64,000 nt of DNA, taken from assembly GCA_964632175.1 (NCBI GenBank), contig CAZWBJ010000002.1, positions 13,878 to 77,877 of the forward strand. Reading direction: 5' to 3'. This stretch comes from Candidatus Hadarchaeota archaeon (GTDB lineage: Archaea; Hadarchaeota; Hadarchaeia; Hadarchaeales; JAWBSP01). The position numbers were made by a program, and so were the translations under genes. How positions within the stretch are numbered: position 1 is the first letter of the stretch; each line of letters opens with the position of its first letter. The notes beneath the pieces were generated by a model. The model had not been told where the DNA came from. It did no database searches and saw only the letters and a list, made by a program, of their open reading frames with translations. Shown piece by piece: positions 9,139 to 23,226 of this stretch.

Positions 9139-10554
9139 TCAGATCGCTCCGAACTTTTGGAGCGTGGGGAGCAACTCCTGTTTCAGCCAAGCTTCGGCTC
9201 TTTCCTCGGCGTCTCCCACGTATTTTTCCACCCTGAGCGCTTCCTCCAACCTTGGCAACTTCCCGATTACGGCATCCTCTTGGAGAAGCCGTAACAGGGG
9301 ATTTTCCCCCCCTTTATCGACTTCCTCCCAAGCCCTCATGCAAAGGCTCCGCAGTCTTTCATGCATCTCCTGCCTACTGTGTCCCCTCTTGACCAGCTCC
9401 ATGAGTATAACCTCTGTGGCCGCAAAGGGAGCAAACCTCCGCAGATTGTCGGAAATTCGCTGCCGGTTCACCTCCAAACCAGAAAGGATCCTCTGGAGCA
9501 GGAGAAGGCACTCATCCAGAGCCAAGAAAGCCTCTGGAAGGATGATCCTCCTGTTCGCCGAGTCGTCCAGCGTTCTCTCGAGCAAGCTCTGGGCAGCGTT
9601 TTCCCATGCCACCTGCGGGAGGACCGAGACGTATCTGCAGAGGGAGCAAATTCTCTCCGACAAAACAGGATTCCTCTTGAAGGGCATGGCCGAGGATCCC
9701 ACTTGCTTCCTGCCCATGGGCTCCAGAACCTCACCCATGGACTGAAGGTGGCGGAGATCCGAGGCAAACTTGTAAAGGCTCTGGGCCAAGCTACTAAGGG
9801 AGGAAAGAAGCACAACGTCCAGTTTTCTGGGATAGGTCTGGGAGGCGATGGGATAGGCTTCTATCCCAAGCTCCTTCATCACCTCTTCCTCAAGCTCTCC
9901 CGCTTTCTCTCCCACAAGTTCCCTGAATCCGGCCGAGGTTCCTACCGCCCCCTTGATTCCCTTTCCCTTCAAGAAGTTTTCCTTCACGAACTCCAACAGG
10001 CGGAGGTCGAGCAGAAGGTCTTGGGCGTAGCCGCAGAGTCGGTATCCTAAGGTGGTGGGCTCGGCTGGCTGTAGATGCGTGTATCCCATGCAGACCAGAC
10101 CCTTGTATTTCTCTATCTGCGTGGCGAGAACCGAGAGGCAGGAAACTATCCTTTTTATGAGAAGGTCCACAGCCTCCCTGAACCTAAGCACGTCTGCATT
10201 ATCCTCAATATCCATGGAGGTGGCACCGGCATGCAACTTCCCGCCAGCCTTGGGGCACTGTTCTGCGTACGTCCTGAGCTCGGCCATCAAGTCGTGCCCT
10301 ATCTCTCTCTCGATCTCCTCTGCCCTCCGGATGTCCACTCTTTCGGCCGCTGCCTTGAGTTCCCTCAACTCCTCCGGCGAGAGGAGCCCATATTTGGCCT
10401 GCGCCTTGGCAAGCGCCAGCCAGACCTTCCTCCAAAGTTTCCTGCGCCGAACCTCGGAGAAAATTTCCCTCATCTCCCTGCTCCCGTACCTCCAAGTGAA
10501 TGCCGAAAGGAAGGTTTCATGAGTGAAGCTCTCCATTGGGAAGTCGGCGGACAT
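9139..10554 (-). CDS. purB: Adenylosuccinate lyase
   Basis: GSSAMPFKRNP fumarate-lyase signature; 471 aa. Confidence 0.9.
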   Translation of the reverse strand: MSADFPMESFTHETFLSAFTWRYGSREMREIFSEVRRRKLWRKVWLALAKAQAKYGLLSPEELRELKAAAERVDIRRAEEIEREIGHDLMAELRTYAEQCPKAGGKLHAGATSMDIEDNADVLRFREAVDLLIKRIVSCLSVLATQIEKYKGLVCMGYTHLQPAEPTTLGYRLCGYAQDLLLDLRLLEFVKENFLKGKGIKGAVGTSAGFRELVGEKAGELEEEVMKELGIEAYPIASQTYPRKLDVVLLSSLSSLAQSLYKFASDLRHLQSMGEVLEPMGRKQVGSSAMPFKRNPVLSERICSLCRYVSVLPQVAWENAAQSLLERTLDDSANRRIILPEAFLALDECLLLLQRILSGLEVNRQRISDNLRRFAPFAATEVILMELVKRGHSRQEMHERLRSLCMRAWEEVDKGGENPLLRLLQEDAVIGKLPRLEEALRVEKYVGDAEERAEAWLKQELLPTLQKFGAI

Positions 10555-10644
10555 CCTTTTAATGGTGGGGGCTCCCCATCAGACCAATGCCAAAGACCTC
10601 CCATCTCGGCATTAAGCTTATTCTTTTTGGGAGGGCTGAAGTTG

Positions 10645-12162
10645 ATGCCCATCCGGAGAGCGCTCATTTCGGTCTCGGACAAAACGGGGCTGGAGGAGCT
10701 GGGGAAGGCCCTGCATGAGCTGGGGGTGGAAATCATCTCCACGGGGGGTACAGCAAGGTTCCTGAGGGAGAAGGGAATCAAGGTTAAGGAGGTTAGCGAG
10801 ATAACTCGGTTTCCCGAGATCCTCAACGGAAGGGTCAAGAGCCTTCATCCCCTCATTCACGCCGCCATCCTTGCAAGGAGGGAAGACCCCTCCCACATGC
10901 AGGTGCTCCGCGAGCTTGGAGTAGAGCCGATAGATCTGGTGGTAGTCAATCTCTATCCCTTTGAGGAGACGATCTCTAGGGGAGCCAACCTGGAGGAGGC
11001 ATTGGAGCAGATAGACATTGGCGGTCCAACCCTCCTCCGCGCGGCCGCCAAGAATTTCAAATCCGTGGCCGTGGTTACGAATCCCAAGACATACGGTGAG
11101 ATCATACGGGAGTTGAGGGAAAAGGGGGACCTTTCGGAGCAGACCAGAGTTCGCCTTGCCAAGGAGACCTTCGCCCTTACCTCCCACTACGATGCGGCCA
11201 TTGCAGGGTACCTAGAGCGGGTTTCCGGTGAGAGGGGTTTTCCCAGCATCCTCTCCCTCCACGCCGAGAAGCTGCAGGAGCTCCGATACGGGGAGAACCC
11301 ACACCAGCCGGCCGCCCTCTACAGATGGGGTTACGGACTTGCCAGCGCAAGAAAAGTGCAGGGGAAGGAGCTCTCCTTCAACAACCTCGTGGACCTGGAT
11401 GCCGCCTGGTCGTTGGTTCAGGAGTTTGAGGAGCCCACGGCCGCAGTGATAAAACACACCAATCCCTGTGGGGTGGCCTCTGCGGGATCCATCTCGGAGG
11501 CCTACAGGCTGGCCAGGGACTGCGATCCCCTCTCGGCCTACGGGGGGATCGTGGGGCTAAACAGGGAGATGGATGCGGCAACGGCTGAAGAGATAACCTC
11601 CACCTTCATAGAGGCGGTGGTGGCCCCCGGGTATCAGGCCGGGGCGCTGGAAATATTGGCCCGGAAACCCAACCTCCGAGCTCTAGAGTTTCCTCTGGAT
11701 CAGCGGGAACCAGACTTCGAGCTGAAGCAAATCTCGGGGGGTTTCCTGGTACAAGGAAGGGATAAGGAACTCCTCCTTGAGAAGAGGGTCGTCACGCGGA
11801 GGGAACCCACGGAGAAGGAATGGGTGGATCTCCTCTTCGCCTGGAAGGTGGTCAAGCACGTGAAATCGAACGCCATCGTGCTCGCGAAGGATAAGCGAGC
11901 GGTGGGGGTGGGGGCGGGGCAGATGAGCAGGGTGGACTCCACGGAGATAGCCATTAGAAAAGCGGGCGAAAGGGCGAGGGGCTCCGTTCTGGCCTCCGAT
12001 GCTTTCTTCCCCTTCCCCGACGCCGTGGAGAAGGCCGCCGAGGCCGGGGTGACCGCCATCATCCAGCCTGGGGGTTCCATAAGGGACCAGCAGGTTATAG
12101 AGACCGCGGACAGGTTTGGTCTGGCCATGGTCTTCACGGGAATTAGGCATTTCAGGCACTAG
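10645..12162 (+). CDS. purH: Bifunctional AICAR transformylase / IMP cyclohydrolase PurH
   Basis: N-terminal MGS-like IMP cyclohydrolase domain (ALISVSDKTGL) and a C-terminal AICARFT domain. The start ATG 10645 is preceded by GGGAGGG at 8 nt spacing. The six-frame ORF beginning at 10075 is an antisense extension over purB. Confidence 0.9.
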   Translation: MPIRRALISVSDKTGLEELGKALHELGVEIISTGGTARFLREKGIKVKEVSEITRFPEILNGRVKSLHPLIHAAILARREDPSHMQVLRELGVEPIDLVVVNLYPFEETISRGANLEEALEQIDIGGPTLLRAAAKNFKSVAVVTNPKTYGEIIRELREKGDLSEQTRVRLAKETFALTSHYDAAIAGYLERVSGERGFPSILSLHAEKLQELRYGENPHQPAALYRWGYGLASARKVQGKELSFNNLVDLDAAWSLVQEFEEPTAAVIKHTNPCGVASAGSISEAYRLARDCDPLSAYGGIVGLNREMDAATAEEITSTFIEAVVAPGYQAGALEILARKPNLRALEFPLDQREPDFELKQISGGFLVQGRDKELLLEKRVVTRREPTEKEWVDLLFAWKVVKHVKSNAIVLAKDKRAVGVGAGQMSRVDSTEIAIRKAGERARGSVLASDAFFPFPDAVEKAAEAGVTAIIQPGGSIRDQQVIETADRFGLAMVFTGIRHFRH

Positions 12163-15816: not shown

Positions 15817-16383
15817 TTAAAGAAACTTCTCAAACAGCCTCAAAAACTCCTCCCTTTTCTGCGCCGTTACCTCAACCGCCACCACTCCCTTCCCGGGCTG
15901 GCCGTAGAGGATGACCGCTCCCTCTGGAAGGAGGAACCCGCAGGCTAGGGTTGCCAGATCTTCCTCACCCTCCACCTCTATCCTCAGCGGCGTCGGGAGC
16001 TTGAGGGCCTCCATCAGCTCCCCTGTGAGAGTTCCGGGCGGGTTCCTGACCGTCACCGTTCTGGTCGGCCACTTGAGCAGGGCCTTCATCTCCTCCGAGA
16101 TGGGTTCCCGCATTATCCGATGGTCCACCACTGCAAGGTCGGGCGTGATACCTCTCCTTATCAGCTCACTGGTAACGGCGTCCCCCACCGAGGCTAGGAG
16201 CTTGGGCTTCCCGATGGCCTGCAGCGCCTGGTCCACCCCCTCGAACAGATGGCCCAGCGGGCACCTGAGAACGGGTCTAAGTTCCTCGGGCAGCCTTCTC
16301 ATTTTGAAGGAAGTGTATGGTTTCGATTGCCGCCGTCTGGGGGTCTGGCCAGGGAAGGATTTCCGCCGAGACGAAGCCTCCAA
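15817..16383 (-). CDS. DUF359 protein, predicted GTP-dependent dephospho-CoA kinase (archaeal DPCK)
   Basis: Conserved VGD...VVDHR motifs. It shows the classic gene context immediately upstream of rps24e-rps27ae. The true start is probably the internal Met at 16302. Confidence 0.6.
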   Translation of the reverse strand: MEASSRRKSFPGQTPRRRQSKPYTSFKMRRLPEELRPVLRCPLGHLFEGVDQALQAIGKPKLLASVGDAVTSELIRRGITPDLAVVDHRIMREPISEEMKALLKWPTRTVTVRNPPGTLTGELMEALKLPTPLRIEVEGEEDLATLACGFLLPEGAVILYGQPGKGVVAVEVTAQKREEFLRLFEKFL

Positions 16384-17080
16384 ACTTCATGGACCGGAGG
16401 GTGGAAAAGATCTCCTGAAAGCTCAGGTGACCCCTTCCGGGAGCCAGCCTGTTGCTGTCGGCTAGGTGCAGATGATGTAGCTTTTCCCCGGCCTTGAGAA
16501 GGGCTTGGGTCAGCGAGACCTCCTCAATGTTCATATGAAAGGTGTCGGCCAGAAGCTTGCAGCCCTTCAGGTCGCGGATGAAGTCCAGGGCCTGCTCCAC
16601 CGTGTTGATGAGGTTGGTCTCGTACCTGTTCATGGGTTCGAGAAGCAGAACGGTCGAGCGCTCCTCAGCGTGGGCCTGACATTCTTGAAAGCACTCCCTG
16701 AGATGTTGGAGGCCCTCATGCCTCCTCTCACACCTCCCCCTGACCGATCCGACTATCACAGGTGCCGAAAGCTTGGAGGAGAGTTCGATGTACTCCTTAA
16801 ACCTCTCCACGGCCTTCCTCCTAACCTCCGGGTCGGGGGAACTAAAGCTCAGGCCCAAGCGGGTGTAAAGGAGGCCCGTCCCCACTGCCGAAACCTCCAG
16901 CCCATACTCCTTCCTCTTCCTGTTGAGCCAGTCCGCCCTGATGGAGGAGGGATTCAGGAGGAAGAGTTCAAAGCCGTCGTACCCCAGGTTGGAGAGGAAC
17001 TTGAGGTTGCGCTCTAGGTCTCCCGAAAGCCCCAAGGGTTCCACCCCCTCCTCGAACGCAAGTACTATGGAGGTCCGCAA
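16277..17080 (-). CDS. Sugar phosphate isomerase/epimerase (xylose isomerase-like TIM barrel)
   Basis: AP-endonuclease-2 / xylose-isomerase-like TIM barrel pattern; 267 aa. Confidence 0.65.
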   Translation of the reverse strand: MRTSIVLAFEEGVEPLGLSGDLERNLKFLSNLGYDGFELFLLNPSSIRADWLNRKRKEYGLEVSAVGTGLLYTRLGLSFSSPDPEVRRKAVERFKEYIELSSKLSAPVIVGSVRGRCERRHEGLQHLRECFQECQAHAEERSTVLLLEPMNRYETNLINTVEQALDFIRDLKGCKLLADTFHMNIEEVSLTQALLKAGEKLHHLHLADSNRLAPGRGHLSFQEIFSTLRSMKFGGFVSAEILPWPDPQTAAIETIHFLQNEKAARGT

Positions 17081-19162
17081 CTATCCGACCTTCTGCAGGA
17101 CCTTCTGCTTGAAGCTCTCGTAGGCCTCCTTGAACTCCTTCCGGGTCTTCTGAACCGCCCCGAAAGCTGGCCAGCTCTCTGGAGGCAACCCCCCACTCCC
17201 AAAATCTACCTCCACCCCTGCCTCGCGCAACACTTGAATGAGTCCGGGGGTGAGTTCCAGAACCTTCCTGCACTCCTCCCCCACCTCATACCGCTCGAGT
17301 CTGCGGAGAATCTCCTTGTCTACCTCCCAGGCTATAGACTCGCGGAAACTCATGGGATCGAAGTTTGGAGAGAGACTCTCCTCGAAGACCAGCGCTTGGA
17401 AGTTAGGGAATTCGGTGTTAGTAACATGCTGGCGCGAGAGGGTTAGAAGAGTTTCCCTAGGCTTTCTCTTGGAAGCGGGAAGCATGTCTATGCCGCGCAG
17501 CACTTCCTCGGCCTGCTCTTCCGAAAGTCCATACTTCCTAGCTAGATAAGAGACCCACTTCTTCCTGTTCTCCGGACTGAAGAAGATCCGATACACCCGC
17601 TTGGTCACGAGAATCCCCACATGGGTCAAATCGTCGTCTATCACCTTCAGCTTTTCCTCAACCTCCGCCGGAGAATTTCCCAGCACCCCCGCCTTGGCGA
17701 GTAGCTTCACGAAGGGCTCCTTGTGGATCGGCCTTAGATACTTCCTGTCGCAAGCCAGCTCGATTTTTTCCTCCACGCTTTCATCTCCTTTTACTTTCAC
17801 CCCGAGCCCCTCGAGCAACTCGTTGAGCGCTCCCTCACCCAGGACCGCCAGCGCCCTCCGAAGCAGGATTTCCGCCTCAACCTCTCGGAGGTGGTCATCG
17901 AGCCTCCCTATCATGGTGGTTTCGTAAACGGTGGTCAGTTTCACCCCTCTCCTCACGGCCATTGCCCTCCCCTCCATCTTGGCCAGGATGAGGTGGGTCT
18001 CCTGAGAAACGCTATAGGTCTCCGTATTGTTGGTTCCTATACCCAAGCTCTCCAGCTCAGCGGTAATCCTTATGGAGGCTGGACTGTTCCCGGCGACCTT
18101 GAACACCAAGTTCGGCCTCCCCCTTTCCAGCGAGGGGGAGTACCCCCAGAGAAGGTAGGAATCGTATTTCACAAGAAAATCCGTGGCGTCGGAGTATATT
18201 TTAAGGGCATCCCTGAGGCTCGCCTCCACACTGTCCGCCACGAAGGGGTTCAGCTGATAGCTGATCATTCCGTGCTCGTACCCAGAGCCGATGAAGATGG
18301 GTCTAAAAACCGCCAGATTGGGGAAGACCGAGACCTCGGTGGCCAGCATGGTGAGTTCATCCGGGTTCTTGACACCCCTTTCAGCCCTCGCGGTCTTGAG
18401 ATCCGGACAGAAGCTCTCCCCGGAGAATCCTTCCCAGAGAGCCGGCTCATCCTCGTAGGCGCACGCGGCCAGAACGGGATTGGTGGAGACCTGGACGAAA
18501 CCCAGATGTCTGAGCCATCGGAGCCCCAGGGCGTAATCGTTTCCAAACTTCCCCAGACCAGAGAAACTGAGTTTGTAGTAAATATTGGACTGAAATTCCT
18601 CCCGGCCCGCTTCTAGGAAGCTCTCGAACAGATTCCGATCATCGAGCCTTTCGCGAATCCTATCGGCCATCCTCGAGAGCATGGAGCCAGGAGGCCGGTA
18701 GTAAACGGACATGGGCTTCTTCATGTCCGAGAGAAGGGCTTCCACAACCTCTCTTGAAACGGGCAGGTCTGGATCGGCCTTTCTTTCCCACTCCTGCCAG
18801 CTCTTCAAGGTTTCCCGAAGGAGCCGTATGGAGGCGGCCACTTCTTCCTCGTCCAGTCCTACCCACTTCCTTTCCACCCCGATGAGGTTAAAGTAAAGCT
18901 GGGCTAGGAAGTCATAGGACCGCAACCACTCCAGAATCCCCCTCTCGTCCCAGTAGCAGGAGGCTCTCCTCACCACTAAGGTCAGTTCCCTGAGGGTCTG
19001 GGCCACCACCTCCGGTAGTGGGAGCTCTCGGTGCAGGAAGTGGTCGGCCGCCAACTTGGTGTGGCCACTTAACACCAGGGCGCTGACAAGCTCCGCATGA
19101 CCGCTGGCCTTCGGCGGAAGCGGCAGGGGAGCGGGTGCGGAAGTTTTTTGGAGCATTACCAT
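17081..19162 (-). CDS. Large (693 aa) uncharacterised protein whose central region is transaldolase-like
   Basis: FVQVSTNPV resembles the transaldolase TTNP signature. VFKVAGNSPASIRITAELESLGIGTNNTETYSVSQ matches the Schiff-base lysine region KIP.T..GI.A...LE..GI..N.TL.FS..Q. The long N- and C-terminal extensions are unassigned. Confidence 0.5.
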   Translation of the reverse strand: MVMLQKTSAPAPLPLPPKASGHAELVSALVLSGHTKLAADHFLHRELPLPEVVAQTLRELTLVVRRASCYWDERGILEWLRSYDFLAQLYFNLIGVERKWVGLDEEEVAASIRLLRETLKSWQEWERKADPDLPVSREVVEALLSDMKKPMSVYYRPPGSMLSRMADRIRERLDDRNLFESFLEAGREEFQSNIYYKLSFSGLGKFGNDYALGLRWLRHLGFVQVSTNPVLAACAYEDEPALWEGFSGESFCPDLKTARAERGVKNPDELTMLATEVSVFPNLAVFRPIFIGSGYEHGMISYQLNPFVADSVEASLRDALKIYSDATDFLVKYDSYLLWGYSPSLERGRPNLVFKVAGNSPASIRITAELESLGIGTNNTETYSVSQETHLILAKMEGRAMAVRRGVKLTTVYETTMIGRLDDHLREVEAEILLRRALAVLGEGALNELLEGLGVKVKGDESVEEKIELACDRKYLRPIHKEPFVKLLAKAGVLGNSPAEVEEKLKVIDDDLTHVGILVTKRVYRIFFSPENRKKWVSYLARKYGLSEEQAEEVLRGIDMLPASKRKPRETLLTLSRQHVTNTEFPNFQALVFEESLSPNFDPMSFRESIAWEVDKEILRRLERYEVGEECRKVLELTPGLIQVLREAGVEVDFGSGGLPPESWPAFGAVQKTRKEFKEAYESFKQKVLQKVG

Positions 19163-19185
19163 TTTTTAGCAAGGACAGTTATTAA

Positions 19186-20100
19186 ATGGTCGGTATCAAG
19201 AGGTACCTCAAGCTTGGGATCGTGCATTTCATGGCTTTCCCCCAGACGATGCGTGGGGAGGGTCCAATCCTCGAAACGTTGGAGAAAATTGCCAATGACC
19301 CCTTTTTTGACCTTGTGGAAGTGGGTTGGATAAAGGACCCGGAAACGAGGAGGCGGGCACGAGAAATCTTGGAGGTTTCGGGACTCGAAGTGGGGTATGG
19401 GGTTCAACCGCGCCTCCTGATGCAGGGGCTGGATCTTAACACCACTGACGAGGTGCGGAGAAAGGAGGCCGTCGGGGTGCTGAAGGAAAGTGTTGAGGAC
19501 GCGCTGGAGCTGGGGGCCAAAAGGCTGGCCTTCCTCAGCGGTAAAGATCCCGGACCGGAAGGAAGAGGGAGGGCCAAGGAACTCCTTGCAGATTCCATAC
19601 AGCAAGTGTGCGATTATGCCTCCTCCCTCGATCGGGACTTCAAGATAATCTTGGAGATTTTCGATAGGGACATCGATAAGCGTTGCCTGATAGGCCCCAG
19701 CAGGGAGGCACGCGAAGTCGCCGAACTGGTGGGGAGAGACAACTTCGGCCTCATGCATGACCTCTCTCACCTTCCGCTCCTGCAAGAGAAACCCCTAGAG
19801 GCGCTGAGCGAGGTCAAGAGGTACCTAATCCATGCACACCTGGGAAACTGTTGCTTGGAGAAGGGAAGCGAACTTTACGGAGATCAGCACCCGCGCTTCG
19901 GCATTAAGGGGGGCTGCGTGGGCGTGGAGGAAGTGGTGGAGTACCTGGAGGCTCTCAAACAGGTGGGTTATATGGACGGGAGGAAGCCCGTGCCGCTGAC
20001 CATCGAGGTGAAGCCGGCAAAGGGTGAGTCGAGCGAGCTCGTGATAACCAACGCCAAGCGGACCCTCCTCAAGGCTTGGGAGAAGTTGGGCCTCCAATGA
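19186..20100 (+). CDS. Sugar phosphate isomerase/epimerase (xylose isomerase-like TIM barrel), second copy
   Basis: Xylose-isomerase-like TIM barrel pattern; 304 aa. Confidence 0.65.
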   Translation: MVGIKRYLKLGIVHFMAFPQTMRGEGPILETLEKIANDPFFDLVEVGWIKDPETRRRAREILEVSGLEVGYGVQPRLLMQGLDLNTTDEVRRKEAVGVLKESVEDALELGAKRLAFLSGKDPGPEGRGRAKELLADSIQQVCDYASSLDRDFKIILEIFDRDIDKRCLIGPSREAREVAELVGRDNFGLMHDLSHLPLLQEKPLEALSEVKRYLIHAHLGNCCLEKGSELYGDQHPRFGIKGGCVGVEEVVEYLEALKQVGYMDGRKPVPLTIEVKPAKGESSELVITNAKRTLLKAWEKLGLQ

Positions 20101-21083
20101 AGAAAGTTCTCGTCACCAGGATCCTGCCCGGCCCCGCCATAGAGATCCTCAAGCAGAGATGCGAAGTTGAGCTGAACCAAGAGGATCGCGTAATCAGTAG
20201 AGAGGAACTGATGAGAGCGGTAAGCGGCAAGGACGGGCTTCTCTGTCTGCTCACAGACAAGATAGACGCGGAGGTGATGGATGCTGCTGGTCCCAACCTA
20301 AAGGTGATTTCAAACTATGCGGTGGGATTTGACAACATCGATGTGGCGGAGGCAACACGGAGGGGGATAGCCGTTACCAACACGCCGGGTGTTCTCACGG
20401 AGACTACGGCGGATCTCACCTGGGCTATCCTGATGGCTGTGGCTAGGAGGATTGTGGAAGCCGACAATTTCCTCAGAACTGGGCAGTGGAAGGGCTGGGC
20501 GCCCTGCCTGATGCTGGGGCACGACGTCTATGGTAAAACTCTGGGTATTGTGGGGCTGGGGAGGATAGGCAAGGCCGTCGCTAGGAGAGCGAAGGGCTTC
20601 GACATGAGGGTACTGTACTATGACATCAGGAGGGACGAACAGGCGGAAAGGGAACTCGGGGTTGCTTACGCTCCCCTTGAGGATCTTCTCAAGGAATCAG
20701 ACTTCGTCAGCATTCACGCCCCCCTCACCGAGAAAACTAGACACCTCATCGGCGAAAAGGAGCTCAGGCTGATGAAACCTACGGCCTTTCTGGTGAATGT
20801 CGCCAGGGGCCCGCTGGTGGACGAGGCAGCCCTCATCAGGGCCCTCAGGGAGAAGTGGATAGCCGGCGCGGCTCTAGACGTTTTTGAGAGGGAGCCCCAT
20901 GTCCCGCCAGAGCTCATTCAGATGAAAAATGTGGTGCTGGTGCCGCATATAGGAAGCGCAAGCGTGGAAACCCGGAGCAAAATGGCCATGATGGCAGTGG
21001 AGAACCTGCTGGCAGTTCTTGAGGGTAAGATCCCCCCCAACCTAGTAAACCCCGAGGTCATCCAAAGGCTGAAACTTGCCTAA
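20097..21083 (+). CDS. D-2-hydroxyacid dehydrogenase (glyoxylate/hydroxypyruvate reductase, GyaR-like)
   Basis: NAD-binding GLGRIG motif and the catalytic R...E...H triad region. ATG 20097 overlaps the upstream stop (ATGA). Confidence 0.85.
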   Translation: MKKVLVTRILPGPAIEILKQRCEVELNQEDRVISREELMRAVSGKDGLLCLLTDKIDAEVMDAAGPNLKVISNYAVGFDNIDVAEATRRGIAVTNTPGVLTETTADLTWAILMAVARRIVEADNFLRTGQWKGWAPCLMLGHDVYGKTLGIVGLGRIGKAVARRAKGFDMRVLYYDIRRDEQAERELGVAYAPLEDLLKESDFVSIHAPLTEKTRHLIGEKELRLMKPTAFLVNVARGPLVDEAALIRALREKWIAGAALDVFEREPHVPPELIQMKNVVLVPHIGSASVETRSKMAMMAVENLLAVLEGKIPPNLVNPEVIQRLKLA

Positions 21084-22635: not shown

Positions 22636-23226
22636 CTACCCCAGGAGCTCCTCCTCTTCCTCCGAGTAGAGGCAACCCTCTCTGGAGTAGTAGGGACACT
22701 CCGGGCAGCAATCGTTCTTTTCCTCACATTCGTAGTAATATGGGCAGTGGTGGCAGCACGGCATTTTAGGGTTTTCAGATGGTATATTTAAATCTTCGCA
22801 AGCTCCAGTCGGCGGTTTCTCTCTCATCCTTTGCCAAGCTTCGTTAGAGCACTCGGCAGCTCTCTTGCAAGTTCGGCCCCATGCTTCCATGTCGCTAGGA
22901 GGGTCGGCAGGGTCTCGTATATCTGCACCCCCTTTTGATTCCGGGTGTCCTACGATCCTGCCGTTGGTCGACTCCACCCGGATTCCGTCACAAAGGTGAA
23001 CCAGTGGGTACCCTCTCCGGTTTTTTTCGGCGAACTTCCGCGCCACCGCTCCCCCGCGTCTCTTCGTCGTCCTGAGCAACTTGCGCTCCGCGGAGAAGGC
23101 TCCTTCCCCGAGGGTCTTTTTAAGCGCCAGCCTGCGCCTCAGCTTCCGCTTTATCTCGAGATCGGTTTCTCGCGCGCCAGCCTCTCGATCTCCTCCCTCG
23201 GGCAGTTCTCCTCCCAGATTCCACAC
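22636..23226 (-). CDS. Hypothetical protein with a basic N-terminal region and a Cys-rich acidic C-terminus. It may actually be only a 42-aa Cys-rich micro-protein (22636-22764).
   Basis: Long ORF with a GTG start. The C-terminus is MPCCHHCPYYYECEEKNDCCPECPYYSREGCLYSEEEEELLG, with an internal CCxxCPYY repeat. A canonical TATA box (ATTTAAATATA, plus coordinates 22783-22793) lies 19-28 nt upstream of the internal ATG at 22764. Confidence 0.25.
   Translation of the reverse strand: MWNLGGELPEGGDREAGARETDLEIKRKLRRRLALKKTLGEGAFSAERKLLRTTKRRGGAVARKFAEKNRRGYPLVHLCDGIRVESTNGRIVGHPESKGGADIRDPADPPSDMEAWGRTCKRAAECSNEAWQRMREKPPTGACEDLNIPSENPKMPCCHHCPYYYECEEKNDCCPECPYYSREGCLYSEEEEELLG

Follow-up and report, generated by a model that had tools for sequence, protein, structure and literature searches.

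The window, the whole stretch of 64,000 nucleotides analysed here, comes from a Candidatus Hadarchaeota archaeon (contig CAZWBJ010000002.1 of assembly GCA_964632175.1), and the subject of this account is a group of four of its genes built around a transaldolase-like protein of 693 amino acids (aa). A sequence-only reading of the window had described two xylose-isomerase-like TIM barrels on either side of the large protein, followed by a D-2-hydroxyacid dehydrogenase. This arrangement is found, and the genes are the following.

16277-17080, minus strand: 267-aa AP_endonuc_2 (xylose-isomerase-like) barrel, Pfam 139 bits
17081-19162, minus strand: 693-aa long transaldolase-like protein, stop codon included, TAL_FSA 28.6 bits
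19186-20100, plus strand: 304-aa divergent AP_endonuc_2 barrel, Pfam 60.7 bits
20076-21083, plus strand: 335-aa GyaR-type D-2-hydroxyacid dehydrogenase, Pfam 2-Hacid_dh_C 226 bits and 2-Hacid_dh 120 bits, NCBIfam NF009714

The 693-aa gene (hereafter TAL-like, for its transaldolase-like product) ends in a stop codon that directly adjoins the start codon of the 267-aa gene, and the 304-aa gene is transcribed divergently from the TAL-like gene, the two starts being 23 bp apart.

The 693-aa protein matches the TAL_FSA profile (PF00923) significantly though marginally, with 28.6 bits against a cutoff of 27 and an E value of 1.2e-6. The match spans residues 222-429, which correspond to profile positions 20-171 of 285, and the score is weak because the Pfam model covers barrel strands 2-6 only. 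An AlphaFold2 model built with 27 homologues has a pLDDT of 92.3 and a pTM of 0.92, and the top 49 matches of this model in a Foldseek search of the PDB are all transaldolases. DSSP assigns eight barrel strands to it (residues 205-208, 222-227, 299-303, 352-357, 376-382, 412-416, 558-563, and 580-584). The protein is thus shown, as modelled, to be a complete transaldolase-type (beta/alpha)8 barrel, with a fold closest to that of the approximately 350-aa Neisseria and actinobacterial type. In sequence searches of the PDB, phmmer gave an E value of 0.17 at best with the protein itself, and the family profile found the transaldolase structure 3r5e at E 6.5e-5. The layout of the protein, in window coordinates, is as follows.

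18563-19162, minus strand: N-terminal all-helical domain, residues 1-200 (only helices by DSSP)
17891-18556, minus strand: barrel strands 1-6, residues 203-424, carrying D209, N228, Q303, K355, N378, T380, T415, M417, and R420
17498-17890, minus strand: helical insertion between strands 6 and 7, residues 425-555 (model helices 418-556)
17081-17497, minus strand: strands 7 and 8 and C-terminal helices, residues 556-693, with LPASKR (S564, K565, R566) and TEFP (T583, E584)

The architecture is indeed as unusual as had been supposed, with its helical N-terminal domain and its insertion between strands 6 and 7. Long unassigned extensions had been described at both ends of the transaldolase signatures. 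The N-terminal one proves to be a separate domain, whereas the C-terminal one is part of the barrel, since it holds strand 7 (558-563, the LPASKR region) and strand 8 (580-584, the TEFP region). In the model, the helical N-terminus (residues 1-200) is the sole separate added domain. It has no Pfam match and contains an invariant AADH motif (D40, H41). The A1 profile aligns in 580-aa relatives from about position 63-124 onward, which implies that the N-terminal domain is partly common to them. The distance from R420 to S564 is 144 residues compared with about 45 in the relative P0252 and in the transaldolase TalB, and the insertion exceeds its counterpart in 350-aa relatives by about 100 residues.

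Residue equivalences were taken from a family-profile search of the PDB, from hhalign against TalB (in a sequence identical to 1ucw), and from a multi-family MAFFT alignment. Invariance was counted over 81 proteins, each from a different species genome. The hhalign match to the single TalB sequence is weak (E 0.0016), yet it places the key residues correctly; that to the E. coli fructose 6-phosphate aldolase (FSA, 1l6w) is not significant (probability 0.4%). Fifteen positions are identical in all 81 proteins: D209, N228, Q303, K355, N378, T380, Y413, T415, M417, R420, S564, K565, R566, T583, and E584. Their counterparts in the two reference enzymes are given below.

N228: N35 of TalB
Q303, codon 18254-18256: E96 of TalB and Q59 of FSA
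K355 (in VFKV), codon 18098-18100: K132 of TalB and K85 of FSA, the Schiff-base lysine in strand 4
N378: N154 of TalB
T380: T156 of TalB
T415: S176 of TalB
M417, codon 17912-17914: F178 of TalB and Y131 of FSA
R420: R181 of TalB, strand 6, anion site
S564: S226 of TalB, strand 7, anion site
R566: R228 of TalB, strand 7, anion site

In addition, the ASKR of the 693-aa protein aligns with ASFR of TalB and ASFK of FSA. The strings VSTNPV and KVAGNSPASIRITAELESLGIGTNNTETYSVSQ, quoted earlier as transaldolase signatures, are both present in the translation, and the proposed lysine is K355, aligned with the catalytic lysines and conserved in 81 of 81 sequences. Membership of the transaldolase/FSA fold family, with the Schiff-base lysine kept, is therefore upheld by profile, model, and alignments alike. 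Neither of the two outcomes named beforehand as refuting it, lack of a significant TAL_FSA match or loss of the catalytic Lys on alignment, has come about. The catalytic Glu of transaldolases (TalB E96) is Gln in all 81 proteins and in every relative of the type described below, and where FSA has its catalytic Tyr (Y131) all 81 have Met. The invariance of 15 active-site positions in 81 species indicates an active enzyme. The same observation rules out a pseudoenzyme or relic, a candidate that was also considered. As judged from these alignments, the predicted product is an active Schiff-base enzyme with neither the transaldolase Glu nor the FSA Tyr.

Among characterized enzymes, the transaldolases of Neisseria gonorrhoeae and actinobacteria (3clm, 3r5e; about 350 aa) and TalB have in common with the 693-aa protein the Schiff-base Lys in strand 4, the Asn in strand 2, and the Thr in strand 5, as well as an anion site composed of Arg (strand 6) and Ser-x-Arg (strand 7). 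The archaeal protein differs from them in its double length, owed to the 200-residue N-terminal helical domain and the insertion of about 100 residues, and from TalB in the changes of Glu to Gln (Q303) and of Phe178 to Met (M417). FSA belongs to the same superfamily and its Q59 is equivalent to Q303, whereas its catalytic Y131 is replaced by M417.

At least 898 proteins match the 693-aa query. They are about 700-750 aa long, are about 50% identical over their full length, and are named "transaldolase family protein" or "hypothetical" in databases; of the 120 homologues listed, nearly all carry a precomputed PF00923 match. A long-form relative is encoded by at least 218 GTDB species genomes, belonging to Bathyarchaeia, "Nitrososphaeria", Thermofilaceae, Thermoproteales, Desulfurococcales, Pyrodictiaceae, Hadarchaeota, and a few bacterial metagenome-assembled genomes (MAGs), and clustering at 50% leaves only about 15 full-length representatives. 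The family profile also retrieves distant proteins of about 350, 460, and 580 aa together with forms of 770 and 1084 aa. These share the Gln and the Met and have the similar motifs GNDYA, SLQVNP, FKLPAT, MNGRL, ASLR, and TVFP; none of the distant relatives attains any NCBIfam transaldolase or FSA cutoff. On sequence grounds, these proteins form a broad, unnamed clade marked by the Q303/M417 signature, here called Q/M-type. It is widespread and conserved, labelled at family level in databases and yet uncharacterized: no characterized member was found, and literature searches returned nothing on the long archaeal protein, on a fructuronate-cleaving enzyme of this family, or on archaeal IolG/M/N pathways.

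The Q/M-type relatives of about 350, 460, and 580 aa include P0179, P0193, P0213, P0220, P0240, and P0252 (loci L091-L093). The neighbours of a 462-aa form, a LacI regulator on one side and an MFS transporter on the other, make a bacterial origin probable for at least this form. The long protein also occurs, with 43-57% identity, in MAGs labelled Anaerolineae, Aerophobetes, and Dehalococcoidales (L010, L063, L071, L080), either by horizontal transfer or by binning error.

For the gene neighbourhoods, open reading frames (ORFs) were called in 83 non-redundant loci by a rough, greedy longest-ORF procedure and the neighbours were clustered. Labels were assigned by phmmer against a few references, and the neighbour counts are therefore lower bounds. 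The neighbours that recur across lineages are 2-Hacid_dh (22 loci, within 8 kb of the TAL-like gene), AP_endonuc_2 (19), GFO/IDH/MocA (17), and Zn-ADH (15); further ones are UxaE and KduI/IolB (12 each), creatininase-like and PfkB (9 each), and GDPD (5). Seven families were treated as core, namely, IolG/GFO, IolM/Zn-ADH, IolN/creatininase, AP_endonuc_2, UxaE, IolB/KduI, and 2-Hacid_dh. Of the 76 loci whose flanks extend for 5 kb or more, 46 have at least one of them within 8 kb and 33 have two or more. Their share of the genes is 16% up to 3 kb from the TAL-like gene and 6% at distances above 6 kb (odds ratio 3.1, p 1e-6, uncorrected for phylogeny). In L079 (Thermoprotei), IolG (372 bits, cutoff 355), IolM (521, cutoff 450), and IolN (241.5, cutoff 245) occur with an IolO-like protein and UxaE, then with the TAL-like gene and GyaR (600 bits, cutoff 455). 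L011 contains IolM (546 bits), IolN (301, cutoff 245), IolG-like, IolO-like, TAL-like, and UxaE genes, together with a 2-Hacid_dh, a barrel of the 304-aa type, and an ABC sugar transporter. IolG, IolM, IolN, and UxaE genes stand beside the orthologous TAL-like gene in L076 and L084 as well as in these two loci. In Bathyarchaeia, IolB (TIGR04378, 232 bits, cutoff 205) is often directly downstream of the TAL-like gene, sometimes with UxaE. UxuA, UxuB, and KdgA, through which fructuronate is usually metabolized, are absent from the clusters L079, L011, and L084. The conserved neighbours are thus enzymes of nonphosphorylated inositol and keto-uronate catabolism. In this regard, the earlier designation of a sugar-phosphate cluster is probably not correct, and sugar-acid or inositol-linked would probably be the better term.

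The genes of the window fit into this pattern to different degrees. The 267-aa protein has as its best PDB match TM0416, the IolO of Thermotoga maritima (2zvr, E 2.4e-54), and scores 264 bits with the NCBIfam IolO model NF041099, below the cutoff of 300. Its orthologues adjoin the TAL-like gene in L011, L015, L079, and L084, and it is predicted from sequence to be an IolO-like 3-epimerase of ketoses or keto-uronates. With 468 bits in NF009714, whose cutoff is 455, the 335-aa protein classes as a glyoxylate/hydroxypyruvate reductase. The 304-aa barrel has only weak NCBIfam matches (36 bits with IolO and 21 bits with hydroxypyruvate isomerase) and no meaningful match in a sequence search of the PDB; its orthologues stand beside 2-Hacid_dh or IolO-like genes in L008, L011, L015, L061, L069, and L072. 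Its identification as a hydroxypyruvate isomerase was considered but is not supported by sequence: the 21 bits compare with a cutoff of 353 for that model (TIGR03234), and BLASTP gives an E value of only 0.008 to the Hyi-like protein of L090.

It might be argued that the four window genes are adjacent by chance and constitute no functional unit. The window holds the rest of no recognizable pathway, and its surrounding genes are archaeal and of a housekeeping nature (purine synthesis, ribosomal proteins of the S24e/L15e type, proteasome alpha subunit). However, the same four-gene arrangement is repeated in the closest locus, L015 from a Candidatus Hadarchaeales MAG, whose TAL-like protein is 73% identical to the 693-aa protein. 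Moreover, AP_endonuc_2 and 2-Hacid_dh neighbours recur, with differing gene orders, in Nitrososphaeria, Thermoprotei, and Desulfurococcales, and the TAL-like stop codon abuts the IolO-like start, so that chance adjacency appears highly improbable. Genes of these two enzyme types lie near the TAL-like gene in many lineages.

Several other genes recur around the TAL-like gene. A cyclophilin-like protein (PF04126 / PF18050) is found in clusters of TAL-like, 2-Hacid_dh, and AP_endonuc_2 genes of distant archaea (L079:13324-14052, L005:13040-13408, and the "242>" genes of L076). In the Bathyarchaeia loci L014, L021, L023, and L031, URO-D-like genes (similar to MtaA/CmuA-type methyltransferases) occur on both sides of the TAL-like gene, and a RACo corrinoid activase is near it in other loci (L067); the URO-D/RACo setting is unrelated to sugar acids. 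GDPD genes adjoin the TAL-like gene in L082, L084, L085, and L005 (Desulfurococcales, Pyrodictiaceae), and PfkB does so too in L082 and L085.

P0225, a natural fusion protein of 1084 aa (L090:5379-8633, contig ERZ23486233 scaffold_3778), joins a UxaE domain to a Q/M-type transaldolase-like domain. The next gene (L090:8676-9452) scores 303 bits with hydroxypyruvate isomerase, against a cutoff of 353, and an isomerase role is plausible for this Hyi-like gene. An Asgard archaeon is suggested by the presence of Arf-like and Roadblock/LC7 genes on the same contig. The cluster of P0225 includes a further member of 1262 aa, P0275. In addition, a distant relative of 583 aa has GFO/AP_endonuc_2/DegT genes on one side and UxaE with a transketolase on the other.

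As cited in the literature, the inositol pathway of Thermotoga maritima proceeds through IolG, IolM, IolN, and IolO and then UxaE, encoded by TM0411-TM0416 (PMC5931981, PMC12632266, PMC3750489); IolO is there a 5-keto-L-gluconate 4-epimerase (PMC12632266) and UxaE a tagaturonate-fructuronate epimerase (PMC3750489). The related archaeal loci carry IolG, IolM, IolN, an IolO-like gene, and UxaE beside the TAL-like gene. In Thermotoga, fructuronate is processed onward via UxuB, UxuA, KdgK, and KdgA, whereas the archaeal clusters lack those genes and carry, in their stead, the TAL-like gene together with a 2-hydroxyacid dehydrogenase and one additional TIM barrel. Of the Thermotoga set, the window itself holds the IolO-like member alone.

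On the basis of gene neighbourhood, one fusion, and chemical logic, it is proposed, with less than even confidence, that the 693-aa protein cleaves D-fructuronate or 5-deoxy-D-fructuronate to a dihydroxyacetone unit and tartronate or malonate semialdehyde. It would then be a C-C-cleaving class I (Schiff-base) enzyme of a nonphosphorylative sugar-acid route, acting on ketohexoses with a carboxylate at C6: D-fructuronate, formed from D-tagaturonate by UxaE, or 5-deoxy-D-fructuronate, formed by IolB. The IolB product 5-dehydro-2-deoxy-D-gluconate is 5-deoxy-D-fructuronate in ketose numbering, and in both of the 2-ketohexoses made by UxaE and IolB the C1 hydroxymethyl group is free, C6 is a carboxylate, and the configuration is the 3S,4R one that enzymes of the transaldolase and FSA type require. 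In the proposed sequence of events, K355 would form an imine at C2, the keto carbon of the substrate. D209 would then deprotonate the C4 hydroxyl and the C3-C4 bond would be broken, upon which tartronate semialdehyde or malonate semialdehyde would depart. The remaining dihydroxyacetone enamine may be protonated and released, as in an aldolase, or moved to an aldehyde, for example glyceraldehyde 3-phosphate (GAP), as in a transaldolase. The conserved Arg/Ser/Lys/Arg site would hold the carboxylate. Within the window, the right keto-uronate epimer would come from the translationally coupled IolO-like epimerase, and the second TIM barrel and GyaR would handle the C3 acid by converting tartronate semialdehyde to hydroxypyruvate and then to D-glycerate.

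A similar logic is known from the sulfofructose transaldolases, members of the family that split the 6-sulfonate analogue of fructose 6-phosphate (F6P) and transfer dihydroxyacetone to GAP or erythrose 4-phosphate (E4P), with a co-encoded dehydrogenase processing the C3 acid-aldehyde set free (PMC7491151). The proposed reaction resembles that of SftT / BmSF-TAL (PMC7491151; 8bc3), with a carboxylate in place of the sulfonate. A functional analogy also exists with the inositol pathway of Bacillus, in which the product of IolB is split at the same C-C bond to a C3 ketone unit and malonate semialdehyde. There, IolJ is a metal-dependent class II aldolase and prior ATP-dependent phosphorylation by the kinase IolC is needed, whereas the reaction proposed here would be Schiff-base chemistry on the unphosphorylated acid.

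A number of observations weigh against keto-uronate cleavage. No associated family was detected in 30 of the 76 loci, and many Bathyarchaeia loci lie in a conserved housekeeping setting of metallo-beta-lactamase, alpha/beta-hydrolase, DHH, and prefoldin genes (lineage-specific synteny). The 64-kb window contains no UxaE, IolG, IolM, IolN, or IolB, and the IolO products (5-keto-L-gluconate as well as D-tagaturonate) lack the 3S,4R configuration in the absence of UxaE. The isomerase role of the window's 304-aa barrel is hypothetical, the protein not being Hyi-like by sequence. D209 (codon 18536-18538) follows strand 205-208 and is 19 residues from N228, compared with 18 between D17 and N35 of TalB, but its equivalence to TalB D17 and FSA D6 is by position only, MAFFT having mis-gapped this region for TalB and FSA. 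The TalB phosphate-site residues are all kept, which by the alignments would suit a phosphorylated sugar just as well. In some loci a kinase gene, PfkB or FGGY, adjoins the TAL-like gene, and transketolase is adjacent in two contexts.

The last of these points bear on two alternatives with phosphorylated substrates. In the first, the protein is an ordinary transaldolase of the pentose phosphate pathway, interconverting sedoheptulose 7-phosphate (S7P) and GAP with E4P and F6P, its helical domains serve oligomerization, thermostability, or regulation, and the neighbours are unrelated. In its favour, the Lys, Asp, Asn, and Thr and the phosphate-binding Arg/Ser/Arg are kept; a transketolase is adjacent in L005/L006 and beside the 583-aa relative, and the gene is widespread, usually single-copy, and set in a housekeeping neighbourhood in Bathyarchaeia. 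However, the residue at the position of TalB E96 is Gln in every member, and the best NCBIfam transaldolase model, PRK03343, scores 18 bits against a cutoff of 367. The recurrent neighbours include neither ribose-5-phosphate isomerase nor ribulose-phosphate epimerase and are enriched instead for inositol and keto-uronate enzymes, a context of inositol/keto-uronate catabolism rather than of the pentose phosphate pathway, and one relative is fused to UxaE. An ordinary transaldolase is therefore considered unlikely. Were it real, it would explain the nonoxidative pentose phosphate pathway in lineages thought to be without transaldolase.

In the second, an FSA-like aldolase would split a phosphorylated ketose, F6P or a ketohexose 6-phosphate provided by the adjacent PfkB or FGGY, into dihydroxyacetone and GAP. 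The Gln shared with FSA Q59 and the conserved phosphate-site residues are consistent with this, as are a PfkB directly upstream in L082 and L085 and an FGGY in L061 and L072. UxaE, which has a known fructose 4-epimerase activity, and the IolO-like relatives of tagatose/psicose 3-epimerases could both act on neutral ketoses as well. Conversely, FSA Y131 is Met in all members, the hhalign comparison with FSA is insignificant (0.4%), and kinases occur in a minority of loci (PfkB in 9 and FGGY in 6 of 83). IolM and IolN indicate acid rather than neutral intermediates, and in the homologous cluster of Thermotoga, PfkB acts as an inositol kinase (PMC5931981). Such an aldolase thus appears quite unlikely.

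A Schiff-base enzyme with some other substrate or reaction is likewise conceivable, for instance one acting on an amino- or sulfo-ketose or on a C7/C8 keto-acid, or catalyzing an enamine epimerization or isomerization without net cleavage. The active site is unique, combining Q303 and M417 with the invariant Y413, K565, and E584, the protein has large extra domains, and genes for DegT-type aminotransferases (7 loci), GlmS, and cyclophilin-like proteins are found repeatedly in its vicinity. These neighbours are nevertheless rarer than the Iol/UxaE/2-Hacid_dh set, and the strand-1 Asp required for C3-C4 cleavage is invariant, which makes this view very doubtful.

If keto-uronate cleavage holds, the long Q/M-type proteins could be a new class of the transaldolase superfamily, that is, keto-uronate aldolases or transaldolases that complete an ATP-independent, nonphosphorylative route from inositol or hexuronates to a triose unit and D-glycerate, a generalization advanced as possible but short of probable. 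The GDPD genes beside the TAL-like gene, with PfkB also adjacent in L082 and L085, hint at glycerophospho-inositol or di-myo-inositol-phosphate-type compounds as a possible source of the inositol. Bathyarchaeia, Thermoproteota, Hadarchaeota, and some Asgard archaea would then gain an unrecognized route for consuming inositol-containing lipids and solutes, missing downstream steps of inositol and uronate metabolism would be filled in abundant and mostly uncultured archaea of the subsurface and hot springs, and the archaeal GyaR would gain a physiological role. A textbook family would acquire a reaction type new to it, in which carboxylated ketoses undergo cleavage or transfer, and metabolic reconstructions would improve where the gene is now labelled "transaldolase" or "hypothetical". 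The distinctive Gln/Met active site, as opposed to Glu/Phe or Gln/Tyr, would raise a question of proton-transfer chemistry, and thermostable aldolases joining dihydroxyacetone with acid aldehydes would be of interest for biocatalysis. Enzyme assays with F6P, S7P, and E4P had been suggested at the outset; as the protein has neither the transaldolase Glu (Q303) nor the FSA Tyr (M417), these may be the wrong substrates to begin with. Taken as a whole, the initial interpretation was right in outline and is partly supported.

Elsewhere in the window, two ORFs reach far upstream of their conserved domains: a DUF359 ORF (188 aa, 15817-16383, minus strand) and a PurH ORF (695 aa, 10075-12162, plus strand). 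In each of the two, translation probably begins at an internal start. The DUF359 ORF thus seems to overlap the IolO-like gene by 107 bp at the latter's 3′ end, accordingly a likely artefact of ORF calling. Finally, a putative 196-aa ORF at 22636-23226 (minus strand) ends with an unusually cysteine-rich tail, CCHHCPYYYECEEKNDCCPECPYYSREGC, after which comes a run of acidic residues.

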